A DNA stretch of 46,806 bases from a virus, in the UHGV virus genome UHGV-1361067, one strand, 5' to 3'. The position numbers and the translations under genes were made by a program. The notes under the pieces are model-generated. The model saw only the letters and a list, made by a program, of their open reading frames with translations. It did no database searches and was not told the origin of the DNA. Below are positions 1,268 through 8,411 of the stretch, piece after piece (position 1 is the first letter of the stretch; every line of letters begins with the position of its first letter).

Positions 1268-2684
1268 CGGTCTGGCCCTGCTGTTGGTCTTGCTGTTGCT
1301 GCTGACCTTCCTGTAATCCGTCAGGAAGCTGCTCCTCCAGAGGCTCCATGCCAACAATGCCGCGCATTTCATCTGCGGTCATCAGGGCCATCTGTCCTGC
1401 ATCGAATACAGATTTGTTTGCAGTGGCAAGCTTGACCAGCAGGTCTGCTTTGTTCAGCTCGGAAGGTGCAAGCAGGTCATCCCATTTGCAGTAATAACCG
1501 CTCTCTGGCGCTTTATCCAGAATGCCAAAGGAAATCATCCGGTCGATGAACACCGAAATGATGTAGTCCAGCCAGTCTTCGCGGCGCTGTTTGGCGCTCA
1601 TGGCGTCGTCGGTTTTATCCTCATCGGATGCAAGGCGGCCAGTCTGCTGACCAAACAGGATGGTGAATGGCTTCTTGATGGATGCCGCAAACTGGTTGGC
1701 CGCAATTGTCCATGTTGGCCCTGGGTCTGCTGGCGTCACCGAGAGCACTTTGACATCAGCGCCCATCGTGAACATCGCCGCGTCAATTGCCTCATTCAGA
1801 CGCGCTACATCCTCATTGAGCACATCAGCCAGTTCTTCCAGCGGCACGCCCATTTGCTGAGCCAGAGACTGAGCGGAAACGCTGTCTTTATTATAATTAA
1901 CGTTGAGCTGCCGACTGGCATTCTTCAGGAAGCCCTCAGCGCTTGAGCCGGTGACTTTCGCCATGTCGATGAGGTGGTTATACCCAGCACGAAGAAGTGG
2001 GACGCCAGAGTAAATGGAGCCATCCATCGCACCCTCGGCAAATACGATAATGCGATCGGGATGAATGCTCAGGGAGCGCGTTGGTTTTCCGTCGCTGTTG
2101 CAGGCGCCGACTACCGACTCCTGATATTCGTACATCTTCGGCTGACCATAGTCTTCGCTGGATTCGTCATTTTCCCATTCACTGACGCGGAGCTGCTCTT
2201 CCCACGCCGGAATGTAGCGGACAATGGCAGCATCCTTGATGCGTTTTGTTTTCGTGGTGTCTACCGGCTCATTCCACTGCCTTCCATCACGGATTTGCAG
2301 GATAAGGCCGGAGTAGCGGTTGATGAGGTTGCGGCGGTCTGCATCCTTGATGAACGGCGCAGCGCGCTTAAACAGCTTGTTGGCTGCTTTCTCCCACGGG
2401 GTGCTTGCTTTGTCATCGGCGCCTTCTTCGAGGATTTGCGGCGGAGTCTGCCAGCACTTATCGAGTACGCGATTGACGCCAGCGGTTGCCGGTGCATAGC
2501 GCTCATAGGCATAGCGGAACATCTCGGCGGTGATTTCTTCAGGGTAGCCACATTCGACATACAGTCTGGTGTGCTTTTGGTCTATGTTTACACCGCTAAA
2601 CTCCCGACGCTGCCGCTCGATGAGCCTGTTATTGTTCGCCACTCGCTGCTGAATATAGGCGTTTACCGCCTCTAACTTTGACAT
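1248..2684 (-). CDS. Portal protein
   Basis: 478-aa ORF upstream of the MuF-like gene in the packaging/head module. It ends with an acidic Q-rich tail. Position and size are typical of SPP1/Mu-type portals. Confidence 0.75.
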
Positions 2685-2694
2685 TTCGTCACCA

Positions 2695-2722
2695 TAAAAA
2701 ATCCCATCGCATGGATGGGATT
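2695..2722 (-). terminator. Hairpin plus T-run (attenuator) immediately upstream of the portal start
   Basis: On the minus strand: ATCCCATC-catgc-GATGGGAT followed by TTTTT. It sits about 12 nt before the portal ATG. Confidence 0.35.
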
Positions 2723-2733
2723 ATAGCATGGTA

Positions 2734-2934
2734 TCAGTCACCAAAGGCTCTCTCTTGAAGGGCCTGGTCATTGTTATGGAATATAGCAAGCTCTATTCTA
2801 TCCCCAAGAACCAAACCGCGACATTTGGCGTACAATTTATAGCGCTTTCCACTGAGTCCAGGCTTAAACCATATCTCCTCAAACCACTTCCTGCAACCAA
2901 CCGCAACATCATGAATCTGTTTTCTTGTCATCAC
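2734..2934 (-). CDS. Hypothetical small protein
   Basis: 66-aa ORF. It is the last of a chain of five small minus-strand ORFs with ATGA/TGATG overlaps between the TerL cassette and the portal gene. Confidence 0.4.
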   Translation of the reverse strand: MMTRKQIHDVAVGCRKWFEEIWFKPGLSGKRYKLYAKCRGLVLGDRIELAIFHNNDQALQERAFGD

Positions 2935-3116
2935 TTCACCTCAACGCATTGCAAATTGTCAACATTTGGACTTACATCATTCCACGTCCGCTTTTCCTCA
3001 GCGATTTTCATTGCCGTAATGGCCGCCATGCACTGCTCCATGCTTTGCATCGGCACCACCTGCATATTGGACGTGTTGCTTGTGATTACGAATATCAGGA
3101 AGAAATACGACATCAC
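2931..3116 (-). CDS. Hypothetical small protein
   Basis: 61-aa ORF. It is translationally coupled to its neighbours (ATGA overlap). Confidence 0.4.
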   Translation of the reverse strand: MMSYFFLIFVITSNTSNMQVVPMQSMEQCMAAITAMKIAEEKRTWNDVSPNVDNLQCVEVK

Positions 3117-3334
3117 TTCGCCTCATCATCAACCAGCGATCTGAACCATGCTGGCTGCAACTTCGCAGCGAGTTTATAGTCAGCACTCTGAATGTAACGT
3201 GCAGCATCATTCAGCTTGTCGGAAAGATAATAAAGTGACTTCCTTGCTCCAAGAAGCATGGCAGCGAATACCAGCATCACAATCAGGTGCGGATTGATGA
3301 TGCAGAACAGGATTGTTTTGACGGCTTTCATCAC
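3113..3334 (-). CDS. Hypothetical small membrane protein
   Basis: 73-aa ORF with a hydrophobic N-terminal segment (ILFCIINPHLIVMLVFAAMLLGA). Overlaps its neighbours (ATGA). Confidence 0.45.
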   Translation of the reverse strand: MMKAVKTILFCIINPHLIVMLVFAAMLLGARKSLYYLSDKLNDAARYIQSADYKLAAKLQPAWFRSLVDDEAK

Positions 3335-3525
3335 TCAATCTCCTCGCCATCAATCCAGCGTTGCAGGACTTCGATAAGCTGCGCGGCCTGGTGTTTGTCG
3401 ATGCCAATAAATGACTCAACACCGTAGCCATTCACTTGATACAACTCCACGACAGGAGTTCCATCCTCAAGCTCTTGCTCAGTTACGTGCATGTCATATG
3501 CGTTTTCTGTTTCTTCAATAATCAT
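3331..3525 (-). CDS. Hypothetical acidic small protein
   Basis: 64-aa ORF coupled to the flanking ORFs. Confidence 0.4.
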   Translation of the reverse strand: MIIEETENAYDMHVTEQELEDGTPVVELYQVNGYGVESFIGIDKHQAAQLIEVLQRWIDGEEIE

Positions 3526-3761
3526 AAATCACCACCCTCATCGTTATTTAGCTCAACATTCCGAAAGAAATCATTAATCGTCTTCAGGCCACTATAACCA
3601 CGACGCCGCTGCAACTCACACAGCACTTCATCATACATGCGCAGAAGAATAGCCTCATCCACATCGTACCTTTCGCACAGTGCCTCATCCGACACACCAG
3701 CTCTTGCGAGTGAGTATATTTTTTCCTTCTGCTCCCACGAAAAAGATGAGTATGCCTTCAT
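3522..3761 (-). CDS. Hypothetical protein (possible HTH)
   Basis: 79-aa ORF, the first gene of the leftward small-gene chain. The SLARAGVSDEALCERYDV segment is HTH-like. Confidence 0.45.
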   Translation of the reverse strand: MKAYSSFSWEQKEKIYSLARAGVSDEALCERYDVDEAILLRMYDEVLCELQRRRGYSGLKTINDFFRNVELNNDEGGDL

Positions 3762-3772
3762 GATGCCCCTGG

Positions 3773-3824
3773 TGATGTAGTTATGTCAATGCGCCTTGAC
3801 GTAGATTCTAGCATGGCGTAGATT
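3773..3824 (+). promoter_or_regulatory. Rightward sigma70-like promoter with three copies of the TGAYGTAGATT motif
   Basis: TTGACG (3796-3801), 17-nt spacer, TAGATT (3819-3824). Motif copies: TGATGTAGTT at 3773, TGACGTAGATT at 3797, TGGCGTAGATT at 3814. The region is divergent with the leftward small-gene operon. Confidence 0.55.
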
Positions 3825-3850
3825 AAAATGAAACCTCTCGGAGAAATCTT

Positions 3851-4141
3851 ATGAAATGTGTCATTTTCGAGCTTGATGGCGTGCTGCGCGATGCTGAGGG
3901 TAATGCCATTGCTGGCAACGTTGCGCTGGCTAAGTCGCTCTACTCTGCCGGGCACGACGTCCTAATCATGAGGGCAAAGCATGCGTATGAGTGGCTGCAT
4001 GCTAACGATGTTTTCTATGATGACATTATGGCTTCGCACCAGCAGATTGACGCTGAAAGGGTGGCAATGGCGGTCGTGTCTGATGACGTGATTTATGCTG
4101 CCATGCGAAATGCGGGGATTCATTGCTGGCTTTACAAATAA
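3851..4141 (+). CDS. Hypothetical protein with a HAD-like N-terminal motif (VIFELDGVL)
   Basis: 96-aa ORF. GGAG lies 8 nt upstream of the ATG. The N-terminus resembles HAD motif I but with Glu in place of the first Asp. Confidence 0.5.
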   Translation: MKCVIFELDGVLRDAEGNAIAGNVALAKSLYSAGHDVLIMRAKHAYEWLHANDVFYDDIMASHQQIDAERVAMAVVSDDVIYAAMRNAGIHCWLYK

Positions 4142-4154
4142 TTTATTATAAATG

Positions 4155-4183
4155 TTGACGTGGATTCATGGTTGATGTAGATT
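4155..4183 (+). promoter_or_regulatory. Rightward promoter TTGACG-N17-TAGATT
   Basis: TTGACGTGGATT at 4155 and TTGATGTAGATT at 4172. It is preceded by AT-rich ATTTATTATAAAT. Confidence 0.5.
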
Positions 4184-4227
4184 GTAGTCATTGAGGCGGC
4201 CGGGGCCGAAATGAATGAGGTGCAAAA

Positions 4228-4560
4228 ATGCAATATCAAGAACGTACTACTGAATTACAAAACTTATATGCGGTTCGCGTAATAAATATGGTTTTAATGG
4301 GGATTGAGGTTAGTAAGTCGTCATACGTTGATCGCTTTATTCACTCACTCTACAACGGCGTTAAATCTAATTGGAATGAAGATTGCACATGGACTGAGCA
4401 CTTTGTTGAAAAACTTAACGAGGAGCGTGAGTCAATAAAAAATGGCTCTTATTGGAAGATGGGGGATTTTTTTAGATTAATTGCTGCTGAAGATAAGGAG
4501 TTCTGGGAGGCGATAGGTGTCCCATTTAAAACATGGAAAAGCATTCAGCTTTGCAATTGA
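4228..4560 (+). CDS. Hypothetical protein (AT-rich, moron-like)
   Basis: 110-aa ORF with a GAGGTG SD. Its GC content is markedly lower than the flanking genes. Confidence 0.5.
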   Translation: MQYQERTTELQNLYAVRVINMVLMGIEVSKSSYVDRFIHSLYNGVKSNWNEDCTWTEHFVEKLNEERESIKNGSYWKMGDFFRLIAAEDKEFWEAIGVPFKTWKSIQLCN

Positions 4561-4568
4561 TTACAGCC

Positions 4569-4592
4569 AGGCCCCGCAACGGGGCTTTTTCT
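4569..4592 (+). terminator. Rho-independent terminator GCCCCG-caa-CGGGGC + T5
   Basis: Perfect GC hairpin and T-run. The same hairpin core recurs at 37610. Confidence 0.6.
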
Positions 4593-7126
4593 TATCTCCT
4601 GCTCCTTCTAATCCATCCAGAGCCACGCTGTACGATGTGATCGTTGCATGCATATCTGATTGCGTCAATGAAGTGGTTCCACGCATCCACAATATTTGTG
4701 AGCACGTTACCCGTCAGCTTGTCCACCTTGTAACTGTACATAGTGAACTCTTCCTGAGTCTGTGTGCAGCGGTCATGAATGATGATGCTGTCGCAACCCC
4801 TGAGCCAGGTTACACCCTCCTCCACGCTCCCGGGCCACTTATTGCATGGATGGATATCAAATCCTGCGCGTTTGATGTGACTGATTGTTTCTGGCCGAGA
4901 GCAGTCCCCATACCATCTTGCCTTCCTGGAGAGTGGGAATGATTGCTCCATCGCTGTAGGTGTGTCGGTAATCTCAAGGCCTACACGGCCGTATTCGCGC
5001 GCGACGTAAAGGTTGCGGCGGTCATCAGGAAGTTTCTCAATGTAAACCTCAACCATCGCCGTTGCGTCCTGCGAGAATCCAAAGTCGATGCCAAAGTAAG
5101 GCCCATGCCATTCCGGCTTAACCTCGAAATCAGCAACGCGCCACTTACCGCCAAATACCTGCTCATCATTACGCTTATTAAAGCGCCCACCCCACACCCA
5201 TTGATAGCGGTCGAAGTCGGTCTCTTTCATGCGTTGCATTTGGCTTGGGAGCGGAGTATCCCAGAACCACGGATTGTCTGAGTAATTACACTCCATAATC
5301 AGGTTTTCATCATCCTCATAGATGCCGCCATTTTCGCGCAATTTATTATAAAAAGGCTCAACCCATATTTTCCACGTCGGGTCATGCTCTTTATTTGGGT
5401 TGAAAGTCACCCATATCTCTGACCCTTCAGCGCGGACTGTTGGGGTGAGGATTTCCCAGCTTGTCTGGCTGACGTTTTCCGCCTCCTCGACCCAAGCTAC
5501 TGTAATGCCAGCGAAGCCTTTTACGGTCGTCTGGTTGCGATACAGGCCTTTAAAGCGGAACTTTGCTTTCGTTACCTTGTGTGTTATTTCGTTGTTGATG
5601 ACGCGAAACTCTTTTGTCTCGCCCTTCCTGTCAATCTCGTCTTTCAGCTCCTGATATGAACTATCCTCAATAGACTGCTGAATCTCACGAAAACAAGCTA
5701 TCCTGTCAGGCTTAAAGCGTGCACGCTCCGTAAGTATTGTTGTTACTGTCCTTGTTTTTCCGCTGTTGTGTGTAACCGTGCCATCAGCAAGCAGGAAAAG
5801 ATGATCGCCATCAATAGTGAACCCAGCGTATTCACCATGCCCGACATAAGACAATGACACCTCAGACATCTTTCCACGGGTTGACTTGGTTTTCTCTGCT
5901 ATCTTCCTTTTTACTCGGCATGGGATTGTATGAAGGTCACCACTAACGAACACCTCCCATACGTCCTTTTCGTATATTCTTTTCTCACCTTTATATTCAA
6001 AGGTGACATCAGTCTTTTTGATTATGCTTGACTTGAAGCCAAGCGATCTTGCCACATCCATCAAAGAGAAGGCCATTTCTTTATTTATTGATGTGAAAGA
6101 ATAGCTTTTCTTTTTCTGGTCATAATGCGAATCAGTATCCAATAGCCCAGCCAGAATCTGAAGTCTTACCTCTCTGCTGTTTTTGATATAGCAGTCAGGT
6201 ATGTGTTTATTATTAATCACCCCAAGCTGCTGCATTTTAGTTAGTAACGGGTTGGTGTTCTTCCCCATGCCAGCAGCTCGACCATTAGTTATCGCATAGA
6301 CAGGGCATCTATCATCGTCGCGAACCTTTACCTGCATCCCGTATTGGCTTGCCACGTTGTGAATGTAGTCAACTATCTCTGGATCAGGCGTGCACACTTC
6401 AACACCACGAGATGAACCATCACCTAACCATAAACCAAGAAAGTACGGGTCAACTGGGACGCTTTGGTCATTAAAATCCCATCCTGTTCGCCACCCTTTA
6501 AAGACATGGCGGAACTTTTTTGAAGTTGCGCGCGACAAATATTCTGAAACACCAATATTCAGTATTTCAGGTTCATTCGGGTAATAACGATAAATTCTTT
6601 TACCATCCGGTGTTTTTGTCTCGTCACTGATAGCAGATGGAATCTTTCGTAATGACAGTATGTGACTTGAGTTGACAGTGTAGTCATCAGCATATTTTTG
6701 ATGAACCGTATACATGTCATCAAACCCCCGACAGATGTTTAAAACATTTCGTGGTTTACTGTCTGGACCCATAACCTTATCGCCAACAACGATATCCTCT
6801 ACGCGTTTTAGGCTACCATCAAACATCCTCACCATCGTGCCGATGGCTAAGCATCCGCGCCCGCCAAACACAATCTTATTACGCTTGGGGTAAAGTAGCT
6901 TTTCCAGCTTTTCTGGTATCAGGTGATCAACGCCAATATCAGAGTCGCTAACGTCATCAACTCCGCTTTGCGTCATTTTTAGTTTGCGAACAATCTGCTT
7001 ATCTGTATTAACAACACCGAACACCGCAGATTCAGGCGCATCAATCACGCCATCGCCAATAATCTCTTCGAGTTTTTCAATTGCTGGTGCTGAGAGTCTT
7101 TTGCGTGCCATATATAGATTCCTCAT
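4592..7126 (-). CDS. Terminase large subunit, interrupted by an in-frame intein
   Basis: 844-aa ORF. The N-extein ends …KIVFGGRG, and the C-extein begins SGKTRTV…, so the junction reconstitutes the Walker A motif FGGRGSGKT. Walker B-like VAWVEEAE lies downstream. Without the intein the protein is about 481 aa. Confidence 0.8.
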   Translation of the reverse strand: MRNLYMARKRLSAPAIEKLEEIIGDGVIDAPESAVFGVVNTDKQIVRKLKMTQSGVDDVSDSDIGVDHLIPEKLEKLLYPKRNKIVFGGRGCLAIGTMVRMFDGSLKRVEDIVVGDKVMGPDSKPRNVLNICRGFDDMYTVHQKYADDYTVNSSHILSLRKIPSAISDETKTPDGKRIYRYYPNEPEILNIGVSEYLSRATSKKFRHVFKGWRTGWDFNDQSVPVDPYFLGLWLGDGSSRGVEVCTPDPEIVDYIHNVASQYGMQVKVRDDDRCPVYAITNGRAAGMGKNTNPLLTKMQQLGVINNKHIPDCYIKNSREVRLQILAGLLDTDSHYDQKKKSYSFTSINKEMAFSLMDVARSLGFKSSIIKKTDVTFEYKGEKRIYEKDVWEVFVSGDLHTIPCRVKRKIAEKTKSTRGKMSEVSLSYVGHGEYAGFTIDGDHLFLLADGTVTHNSGKTRTVTTILTERARFKPDRIACFREIQQSIEDSSYQELKDEIDRKGETKEFRVINNEITHKVTKAKFRFKGLYRNQTTVKGFAGITVAWVEEAENVSQTSWEILTPTVRAEGSEIWVTFNPNKEHDPTWKIWVEPFYNKLRENGGIYEDDENLIMECNYSDNPWFWDTPLPSQMQRMKETDFDRYQWVWGGRFNKRNDEQVFGGKWRVADFEVKPEWHGPYFGIDFGFSQDATAMVEVYIEKLPDDRRNLYVAREYGRVGLEITDTPTAMEQSFPLSRKARWYGDCSRPETISHIKRAGFDIHPCNKWPGSVEEGVTWLRGCDSIIIHDRCTQTQEEFTMYSYKVDKLTGNVLTNIVDAWNHFIDAIRYACNDHIVQRGSGWIRRSRR
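5765..6853 (-). mobile_element. Intein (363 aa) with a double-LAGLIDADG homing endonuclease, in the terminase P-loop
   Basis: Begins with Cys (CLAIGTMV…) right after GGRG. Ends …LLADGTVTHN, followed by the +1 Ser (SGKT). Internal LGLWLGDGS and LAGLLDTDS motifs match LAGLIDADG. Boundary codons were verified on the sequence (gca at 6851-6853 is Cys; gtt at 5765-5767 is Asn). Confidence 0.75.
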
Positions 7127-7210
7127 CAGGGCATCATTGAAGTGAATGCGGCAGGCGGTGATGAGTCGCTTTTCGGGTGCCCCCTAGCCGCATTGATTAT
7201 TATAAATCAG

Positions 7211-7651
7211 TTACTGTTGCTGCTCCAGTAATTTCTCCAGTCGCTCAAGGCGTGCGGCGAGCTCTGTTACTTCTTCGATATCAAGCCCAGCCTTCAGAAT
7301 GTCTGCCATCATCTTGCCAATGTCGGCTGGAACAACGCCAGTAGAGACGCCCTTGATAATCGCATCCATCTTCTGTACAGGTGTGCCGTCGGCAGGGAAA
7401 TCAAACTCAACAGGAGGCGCTACAGGTTTTGGAATTGGGTTCAGTCGCAGGAATATTTCGCGCAGCATGCCGGTAGCCTGAGCATCTTCGCATGTCATCG
7501 CCTTGTTGATGTAGTACGTGACGAATTCAATCTCATTCATCGGCGTATTTGCAGCGCGCAATGCTTCAAGAAGCACTGTTCTGTAGCTTTTTCCTCTTGG
7601 TGGCGGCTGATTACTGGATGAAAATTTGTGCTTAGGGTTCGGATTTGCCAT
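7211..7651 (-). CDS. Putative terminase small subunit
   Basis: ORF immediately upstream of TerL. Likely start is the ATG at 7651 (MANPNPKHKF…), with an AAGGAC SD 9 nt upstream. It has a basic N-terminus and an acidic coiled C-terminus. The call rests on position only. Confidence 0.45.
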   Translation of the reverse strand: MANPNPKHKFSSSNQPPPRGKSYRTVLLEALRAANTPMNEIEFVTYYINKAMTCEDAQATGMLREIFLRLNPIPKPVAPPVEFDFPADGTPVQKMDAIIKGVSTGVVPADIGKMMADILKAGLDIEEVTELAARLERLEKLLEQQQ

Positions 7652-7768
7652 TTTATATGTGTCCTTTAAGTAACTCACATAGGACATATCTTACCACATG
7701 GCGCAGATAAAAAAGAAGCCAGCGCAATGCTGGCTTAAAGGGTGGTGAGGTGATGATCGATGAAACTA

Positions 7769-8254
7769 TCATACACCATGATTATCGTGAAACCCATACT
7801 CTTCTTCTGCTTTCTTTCTTGCCAGCTCCGCATCAAGTATGTCGTTGAAATATCCAAGATGTATGAACTTCTTGTTAACCCTTATTTTTGCTTGCCACTT
7901 TCGCTTATCCTTCCTCCAGTGTACCCCAGTTACTCCACTACTATTGCTAGAGTACTTAGATTTGTTTTTTAGATTCCCTCCCCTATTTGTCAGCCTGAGA
8001 TTTTCAATCCTGTTATCACCAGGGTTATGGTTTATATGGTCAATTTCCAATCCGCCAGTTATAGGGCCATTATGCATTTCCCATATGATTCTGTGCGCAA
8101 AGTATTTTCGTCCAGAGCACCAAATAGATGTATATCCTTTTGACCCTGAGTGGCCTGCAACCTTACCTTTTCTTGCCTTGCGGCCATCATCCTCGCGCCA
8201 TATCAGGTTTCCGTTGTTGTATTCAAACAGCTCATTCCAGTCTATTCTTTTCAT
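7769..8254 (-). CDS. HNH homing endonuclease with AP2 DNA-binding domain
   Basis: HNH_3 motif EIDHINHNPGDNRIENLRL and AP2-like SGVTGVHWRKDKRKWQAKI…LGYF. Likely start is MKRIDWNELF at 8254, with GGAG upstream. It is a paralog of the genes at 16738 and 17730. Confidence 0.75.
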   Translation of the reverse strand: MKRIDWNELFEYNNGNLIWREDDGRKARKGKVAGHSGSKGYTSIWCSGRKYFAHRIIWEMHNGPITGGLEIDHINHNPGDNRIENLRLTNRGGNLKNKSKYSSNSSGVTGVHWRKDKRKWQAKIRVNKKFIHLGYFNDILDAELARKKAEEEYGFHDNHGV

Positions 8255-8411
8255 CACACTTACCGCTCCTGCACCACAAATCATTGCGTGGGGATTTAAC
8301 ATGAACCACCTCAATCGCATCAGGAAAGGCCTTGGCGATTGCTGCTATAAAGTGGTCGACGCCTTCAATCTGCGCGGACTGCCACACCTCTTGCTTTGAT
8401 TTTTGCGGCAT
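8232..8411 (-). CDS. Hypothetical small protein
   Basis: ORF on the track. Likely start is MPQKSKQ. It overlaps the HNH start by about 23 nt. Confidence 0.3.
   Translation of the reverse strand: MPQKSKQEVWQSAQIEGVDHFIAAIAKAFPDAIEVVHVKSPRNDLWCRSGKCDEKNRLE

Follow-up and report, generated by a model that had tools for sequence, protein, structure and literature searches.

Terminases have been described as a common target of inteins in phages (PMC4760082), and insertions in the P-loop have been called 'classic'. TerL1-a and TerL1-b, found in the Walker A motif of the large terminase subunit (TerL) of mycobacteriophages, splice efficiently, cut intein-less alleles and occur sporadically among related phages (Kelley et al. 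2016, PMC5050341). In that study, the mycobacteriophage inteins were found only in Terminase_1 and Terminase_6-like proteins (PMC5050341). TerL1-a is inserted between Lys and Thr (GK/T; a slash marks the insertion point throughout) and TerL1-b is one residue off. Here, we describe an insert that splits the P-loop of TerL in UHGV virus genome UHGV-1361067, a stretch of 46,806 nt that was analysed as a whole and is referred to below as the window. The insert is very probably a class 1 intein of the PI-SceI type with a double-LAGLIDADG endonuclease, predicted to splice itself out of TerL and to home by cutting the empty allele. Like TerL1-a and TerL1-b, it is a Walker A intein of a phage TerL with a sporadic distribution. 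However, those inteins have Terminase_1 hosts in actinobacteriophages, whereas the host here is a Terminase_3/PBSX protein of enterobacterial siphophages and the insertion point, G/SGKT, is three residues upstream of K/T. Terminase P-loop inteins are already known, and this one is a new, unannotated case.

The terminase open reading frame (ORF) is on the minus strand and extends from 7126 to 4592 (844 amino acids, aa). The likely TerL start is the ATG at 7111 (MARKRL), which is preceded by GAGGA 8 nt upstream and is the start in all annotated relatives, and the N-extein is therefore 86 aa rather than 91. The minus-strand protein reads FGGRG, then an in-frame insert of 363 aa that occupies exactly 5765-6853 and has Cys as its first residue and His-Asn as its last, and then Ser-Gly-Lys-Thr. 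When the insert is deleted, the flanks join as GGRGSGKT, in agreement with the Walker A consensus GxxxxGKT. On the plus strand, translation of 5765-6853 is interrupted by stops throughout, and a reading of the insert on that strand was discarded. The precursor has a calculated mass of 96.4 kDa, the intein one of 41.1 kDa and the spliced TerL (476 aa) one of 55.3 kDa. A preliminary description of this DNA, made from the sequence alone, had proposed an intein with these boundaries and junctions, which are correct to the base; the strand, left unstated there, is minus, and the expected products of roughly 55 and 41 kDa match the calculated values. The features of the gene are as follows:

4592..7111, minus strand: TerL precursor gene, 839 codons plus stop, in an ORF open from 7126; matches Terminase_3 and Terminase_3C and is interrupted by the intein.
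6854..7111, minus strand: N-extein, 86 aa, ending ...KIVFGGRG, which provides the first half of Walker A; GGRG is encoded at 6854-6865 and is invariant in 14 aligned TerLs.
5765..6853, minus strand: intein, 363 aa, 41.1 kDa, class 1 by its sequence; Cys1 to His362-Asn363, then Ser+1.
6458..6853, minus strand: N-terminal Hint part, intein aa 1-132; Cys1 (block A) at 6851-6853 and N61-S-S-H64 (block B) within 6659-6673.
5954..6457, minus strand: double-LAGLIDADG endonuclease domain, intein aa ~133-300, with the Hom_end and LAGLIDADG_3 matches.
6413-6439, minus strand: LAGLIDADG motif 1, LGLWLGDGS; catalytic D145 at 6419-6421.
6206-6208, minus strand: K216 of the endonuclease domain, aligned to PI-SceI K301.
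6128-6154, minus strand: LAGLIDADG motif 2, LAGLLDTDS; catalytic D241 at 6131-6133.
5765..5953, minus strand: C-terminal Hint part, intein aa 301-363, with blocks F/G ...YAGFTIDGDHLFLLADGTVTHN; His362-Asn363 at 5765-5770.
4592..5764, minus strand: C-extein, 390 aa plus stop; Ser-Gly-Lys-Thr, the second half of Walker A, at 5753-5764.
5474-5500, minus strand: Walker B, VAWVEEAEN, in the C-extein; the RNaseH-like nuclease domain is further on.

In Pfam searches, the outer parts of the precursor matched Terminase_3 (E=1.7e-31) and Terminase_3C (1e-13), and the insert matched Hom_end_hint (E=1e-20, aa 1-87), Hom_end (2e-10) and LAGLIDADG_3 (6e-8), values that chance would not produce. The Hint and LAGLIDADG domains suggested previously were both detected in this way, and the predicted fold is of the PI-SceI type. 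Removal of the insert in silico raised the Terminase_3 score from 109.8 to 126.7 bits, with the match now reaching profile position 3 across the rejoined P-loop. The spliced sequence matched Terminase_3 with E=1.1e-36 (profile positions 3-201 of 201) and Terminase_3C with 5e-14. The host protein is a PBSX-family large terminase (NCBIfam TIGR01547, 126.8 bits against a cutoff of 105, E=1.4e-36), and the spliced form has the layout of that family, an ATPase with Walker A and Walker B followed by a C-terminal RNaseH-like nuclease, in which GGRGSGKT and VAWVEEAEN are conserved. Among the NCBIfam intein models only intein_Cterm (TIGR01443) reached its cutoff, with 16.2 bits on the precursor against 15.6, and 14.8 bits on the intein alone; the others gave weak or partial matches, and these models told far less than the Pfam and PDB searches did.

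The best sequence match in PDB was PI-SceI, the yeast VMA1 intein (E=1.8e-20), with the alignment extending from residue 1 to the terminal HN. In it, D145, D241 and K216 of the intein fall on D218, D326 and K301 of PI-SceI. An AlphaFold model of the intein, built with 56 related sequences, has a mean predicted local distance difference test score (pLDDT) of 93.4 and a predicted template modelling score (pTM) of 0.90. PI-SceI was also the top PDB fold match of the model (E=1.4e-27, template modelling score (TM) 0.74), followed in order by the Thermococcus/Pyrococcus (Tli/Pho) VMA inteins, PI-PfuI, Prp8 mini-inteins and I-DmoI. The Prp8 mini-inteins match the Hint part (TM 0.78-0.83, normalised by target length) and I-DmoI matches the endonuclease part (E~1e-5, TM 0.55-0.66 on target). 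Within the endonuclease part, the predicted order of secondary structure is helix 136-145, strand, helix, strand, strand, then helix 227-238, strand, strand, helix, strand, strand, strand, as in a pseudo-dimeric LAGLIDADG fold.

C1, H64, D145, D241 and N363 are invariant in the 56 related inteins, and N61, K216 and H362 are at least 90% conserved. Ser+1 is invariant in 14/14 aligned TerLs, with or without the intein. The sequence thus has the Cys1, block B NxxH (N61-S-S-H64) and His-Asn followed by Ser+1 of a class 1 intein and, as the residues are conserved in the 56-sequence alignment, all those for class 1 splicing and LAGLIDADG catalysis are in place. In PI-SceI, too, block B has the NxxH variant. 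The two elements also share a Hint domain interrupted by a double-LAGLIDADG endonuclease, Cys1 as the first residue, a block F of the YxGF type and HN as the last residues, and in both the host protein is a P-loop ATPase. However, they share only ~22% identity, and the TerL intein lacks 91 aa relative to PI-SceI, most of them in the portion of the Hint domain that makes up the DNA-recognition region of PI-SceI. The PI-SceI host is the V-ATPase A subunit with Cys at +1, whereas the TerL intein has a phage terminase as its host and Ser at +1.

Neither a second TerL nor a second intein was found by tblastn in the window. As a Walker A motif split by 363 residues could not bind ATP normally, no other TerL was found in the window and phages with the same allele have been cultured, we infer that mature TerL must arise by splicing. 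The earlier claim that the packaging ATPase can work only after splicing is sound as an inference from the split motif and the lack of another TerL. The gene would be translated as a 96-kDa precursor with a split ATP-binding loop. In the standard four-step reaction, an N-S acyl shift at Cys1 would then form a thioester, attack on it by Ser+1 would give the branched intermediate, cyclisation of Asn363 would release the intein, and an O-N shift would join Gly to Ser. This would leave a 55-kDa TerL whose GGRGSGKT is intact and set free the 41-kDa intein.

The phage is a Klebsiella-type siphophage related to the Roufvirus/Segzyvirus group, which over the structural genes shares ~92-94% identity with the nearest records and is identical to none. 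The whole split TerL gene was found at 90-98% identity in 11 GenBank records representing seven phages, namely Aeromonas phage pIS4-A, Vibrio phage pYD38-A, Klebsiella virus KpV2811 and Salmonella phages Segz_1, ST44, ST46 and ST65. Several of the carriers are cultured, plaque-forming phages. In the GenBank records, the whole ORF is labelled terminase large subunit only, and no report of this intein in pIS4-A, pYD38-A, KpV2811, Segz_1 or Klebsiella siphophages was found in the open-access literature searched. The split gene was also found in 12 contigs of IMG/VR; for at least nine of these, the identity to the gene in the window is 98.7-99.8%.

Most of the IMG/VR contigs L012, L013, L015-L017 and L019-L021 come from a single metagenome, 3300045988. 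This one metagenome contains many distinct viral contigs of ~46-48 kb with a TerL and intein 98.7-99.8% identical to this gene, which suggests a diverse co-occurring population of intein-bearing phages.

When the exteins were aligned with 13 intein-less homologues (47-91% identity), all 13 had a gap of 363 residues exactly between GGRG and SxKT, which is where the preliminary description had placed it. The closest is the 476-aa TerL of Klebsiella phage KP591P1, which is without the 363 residues, reads FGGRG/SSKT and is 97.7% identical in the C-extein; the twelve others (47-74% identity) have the same exact gap. The preliminary description had also named the opposite outcome, in which the region is a conserved structural domain of homologous terminases, and this was not seen. 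Apart from two fragments and P0067, the 120 best extein homologues in a large protein collection are ~446-558 aa long, mostly ~474 aa. P0067 (831 aa) is the only one of the 120 to bear an intein, the same intein at the same site. That search omitted the closest TerLs (91-99%), presumably owing to different scores of split and clustered entries, and these TerLs were taken from the phage collection.

The sixth position of Walker A varies in this TerL family (GGRGSxKT, with G, S, A or M as x), and KT is replaced by KS in one member. The intein-bearing alleles all have the canonical Gly in SGKT, where KP591P1, the closest intein-less allele, has Ser; in KP591P1 the Ser+1 codon is also different, TCA rather than AGC. 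These differences in the Walker A residue and the Ser+1 codon might affect recognition by the endonuclease.

The intein is a member of a large PI-SceI-like clade hosted by many P-loop NTPases, among them thymidine kinase, DnaB, PhoH, ABC ATPases, RecA, AAA proteins, superfamily 2 (SF2) helicases and Terminase_3. Two insertion registers were seen among 120 members of the clade, the common GK/[ST] and the one used here, G/[ST]GK[ST]. The latter is also found in PhoH-like proteins, some helicases and a group of uncharacterised NTPases (for example EGLWG/SGKT, SLPTG/SGKT and VGSSG/SGKS). These hosts and the other Terminase_3 TerLs in the clade list are metagenomic proteins (P0125-P0232), with inteins 34-43% identical to the TerL intein. 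Unlike the TerL described here, those Terminase_3 TerLs have their inteins at GGRGSGK/S, GGRGGSK/S or GGAGSSK/S. The nearest non-TerL relatives in the phage collection are inteins of SF2 helicases, which share the architecture (37-39% identity over the full length), a C-terminal FTVTHN and insertion in Walker A, but have a helicase as their host and interrupt it at GGGK/T, the classic P-loop site. They are carried by Jersey-like Salmonella phages, Klebsiella phage JD001, Pseudomonas phage Touem01 and Vibrio phage PS65A.1. The G/SGKT register is mildly unusual, as the nearest relatives of the intein use GK/T. In Jersey-like Salmonella phages such as PIZ SAE-01E2 (1-1309 and 2402-4867), two inteins are annotated, in the DNA polymerase and the helicase, and the helicase one is 37% identical to the TerL intein.

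The distribution of the TerL intein is sporadic, with the element present or absent among very close backbones. Its GC content is 0.43, compared with 0.49 in the C-extein and 0.47 in the genome, and at third codon positions it is 0.42 compared with 0.56 in the C-extein. The identity of the P0067 intein to this one is 78.5%, compared with 44% and 65% for the exteins. In comparison with Segz_1, the synonymous divergence (dS) is 0.07 in the N-extein, 0.18 in the intein and 0.08 in the first 80 codons of the C-extein, and it is 2.5 (saturated) in the rest of TerL. On the basis of this pattern, a block centred on the intein is common to TerL genes that are otherwise very different. With pIS4-A and KpV2811, dS is 0.64-0.96 in the first 80 C-extein codons and 0.04-0.07 in the remainder of the C-extein.

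Two stretches flanking the intein appear to have travelled with it:

6854..7280, minus strand: upstream stretch, a putative co-conversion tract comprising the N-extein, the intergenic sequence and the last ~70 nt of the 158-aa gene upstream; the upper boundary is approximate.
5525..5764, minus strand: downstream stretch, the first ~240 nt of the C-extein, delimited from dS and per-60-nt identities; the lower boundary is approximate.

The backbone of intein-less KP591P1 is 93-98% identical to the window on both sides of the intein region. On the upstream side, the identity is 94-98% at 7700-7400 but only 50-56% between about 7300 and 6854. Downstream of the insertion point, it is 63% over the initial 60 nt and then recovers gradually. 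In comparison with Segz_1, the identity is 98-100% at 7200-6900 and 76-88% further upstream. In pIS4-A and KpV2811, KP591P1-type sequence resumes ~120 nt after the intein, and in this phage only at ~240 nt. Variable block ends are what the co-conversion tracts of repeated homing events would be expected to produce. In such events, the free intein or the precursor would act as a site-specific endonuclease that cuts the empty site of an intein-less TerL allele in a mixed infection, and repair from the intein-bearing genome would copy the intein together with variable lengths of flanking TerL.

Several independent signs thus point to homing, and the intein is probably still mobile. We tentatively propose that its homing, with tracts of ~120-450 nt to each side, may actively drive the terminase mosaicism reported for the Roufvirus/Segzyvirus-like siphophages that infect Klebsiella, Salmonella, Aeromonas and Vibrio, repeatedly overwriting the small-terminase end, the TerL N-terminus and the early ATPase domain across host genera, and that the G/SGKT register may be new for terminases. 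Several observations weigh against the reading of the insert as a splicing and homing intein. The best intein-less alleles in the phage collection are only 70-75% identical to the reconstituted 120-nt empty junction, and the exact 24-mer of the empty junction had no match in IMG/VR. No empty site with matching flanks, and with it no present-day homing target, was found in these two collections, the only ones searched. The dN/dS estimates described below are derived from few substitutions (6-19 non-synonymous changes), and the part matching the DNA-recognition region of PI-SceI is much shorter here (363 aa vs 454 aa in total). In addition, the terminase genes of this phage group are reported to be exchanged horizontally as modules (PMC11769527), and such ordinary exchange, rather than co-conversion driven by the intein, could account in part for the mosaic at the small-terminase/TerL junction. 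On the upstream side, the low identity of the N-extein to that of KP591P1 may be plain module shuffling, but the intein-centred block shared with Segz_1 argues for linkage to the intein.

Some of these observations would suit an intein that splices but has an endonuclease that is inactive or without targets. It would then be a fixed passenger inherited vertically, with the mosaic produced by ordinary phage recombination. The lack of an empty allele with matching flanks is consistent with this, as is the reported exchange of terminase genes, and the intein is already present in every sequenced genome that has these flanks. Nonetheless, we consider such a passenger unlikely. The two catalytic Asp residues and the Lys have been retained here and are conserved throughout the clade, and the ratio of non-synonymous to synonymous divergence (dN/dS) is 0.10-0.27 for the intein and 0.13-0.25 for its endonuclease part, indicating purifying selection. 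Moreover, the intein lies at the centre of the near-identity block, the ends of which vary from phage to phage, and the P0067 intein shows more conservation than the exteins do.

A second alternative develops the idea in the preliminary description that terminase activity, and hence late packaging, depends on the splicing rate. Conditional splicing, for example in response to redox state or metals via Cys1, would have been co-opted as a post-translational timer of packaging. The P-loop would be unusable before splicing, and conditional splicing is reported for Cys1 inteins of other P-loop proteins such as DnaB and RadA (PMC6195587, PMC4513877, PMC7360933). However, the sequence gives no sign of a sensor, close relatives such as KP591P1 do without the intein, and five mycobacteriophage TerL inteins spliced quickly in a reporter (PMC5050341). 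The sporadic distribution also suits a selfish element better than a regulator, and we regard a timer as improbable. That the insert is a permanent extra Hint or endonuclease domain kept in mature TerL, for which the only point is the naming of the whole ORF as terminase large subunit in GenBank, or that it is an assembly artefact, is hardly credible, given that it splits GxxxxGKT with all splice-junction residues present, is missing from nearly all listed homologues, and recurs in 11 independent GenBank records and 12 IMG/VR contigs.

Directly upstream of TerL, in the position of the small terminase gene, is a 158-aa ORF (7211-7687, minus strand) with no Pfam match. Its last ~70 nt lie within the stretch that is foreign relative to KP591P1, and the tract linked to the intein may also rewrite the C-terminus of its product. 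Just upstream of this probable small-terminase gene, a 183-aa ORF (7769-8320, minus strand) contains an HNH_3 domain (E=1.7e-18). A stretch of ~550 nt (about 8330-7780) is missing here from pIS4-A and KP591P1, both of which are 91-98% identical on either side, and the ORF looks like a free-standing homing endonuclease gene inserted beside the terminase genes. On the other side, between TerL and the portal gene region, there is a 110-aa ORF (4228-4560, plus strand) with no Pfam match. The ~400 nt at about 4600-4200 do not occur in pIS4-A, and KP591P1 has unrelated sequence in their place, making this a variable spot immediately downstream of TerL. ARAGORN found no tRNA genes in the window; in the related pIS4-A, the region matching 20000-44000 of the window has annotated tRNA-Met and tRNA-Arg genes.

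This TerL intein leaves the knowledge of inteins in general unchanged. For this phage group, it means that TerL is mis-sized in annotation, where 839 aa are given as a plain 'terminase large subunit', and that TerL phylogenies and taxonomy that include the intein and its co-converted flanks would be distorted. A study of the group noted discordant TerL trees, and the intein is unmentioned there (PMC11769527). The near-identical intein-bearing genomes, together with a TerL backbone that is 94% similar and intein-free (KP591P1), constitute a natural system for the measurement of homing and co-conversion, in Klebsiella and Salmonella phages that are culturable and therapeutically relevant.

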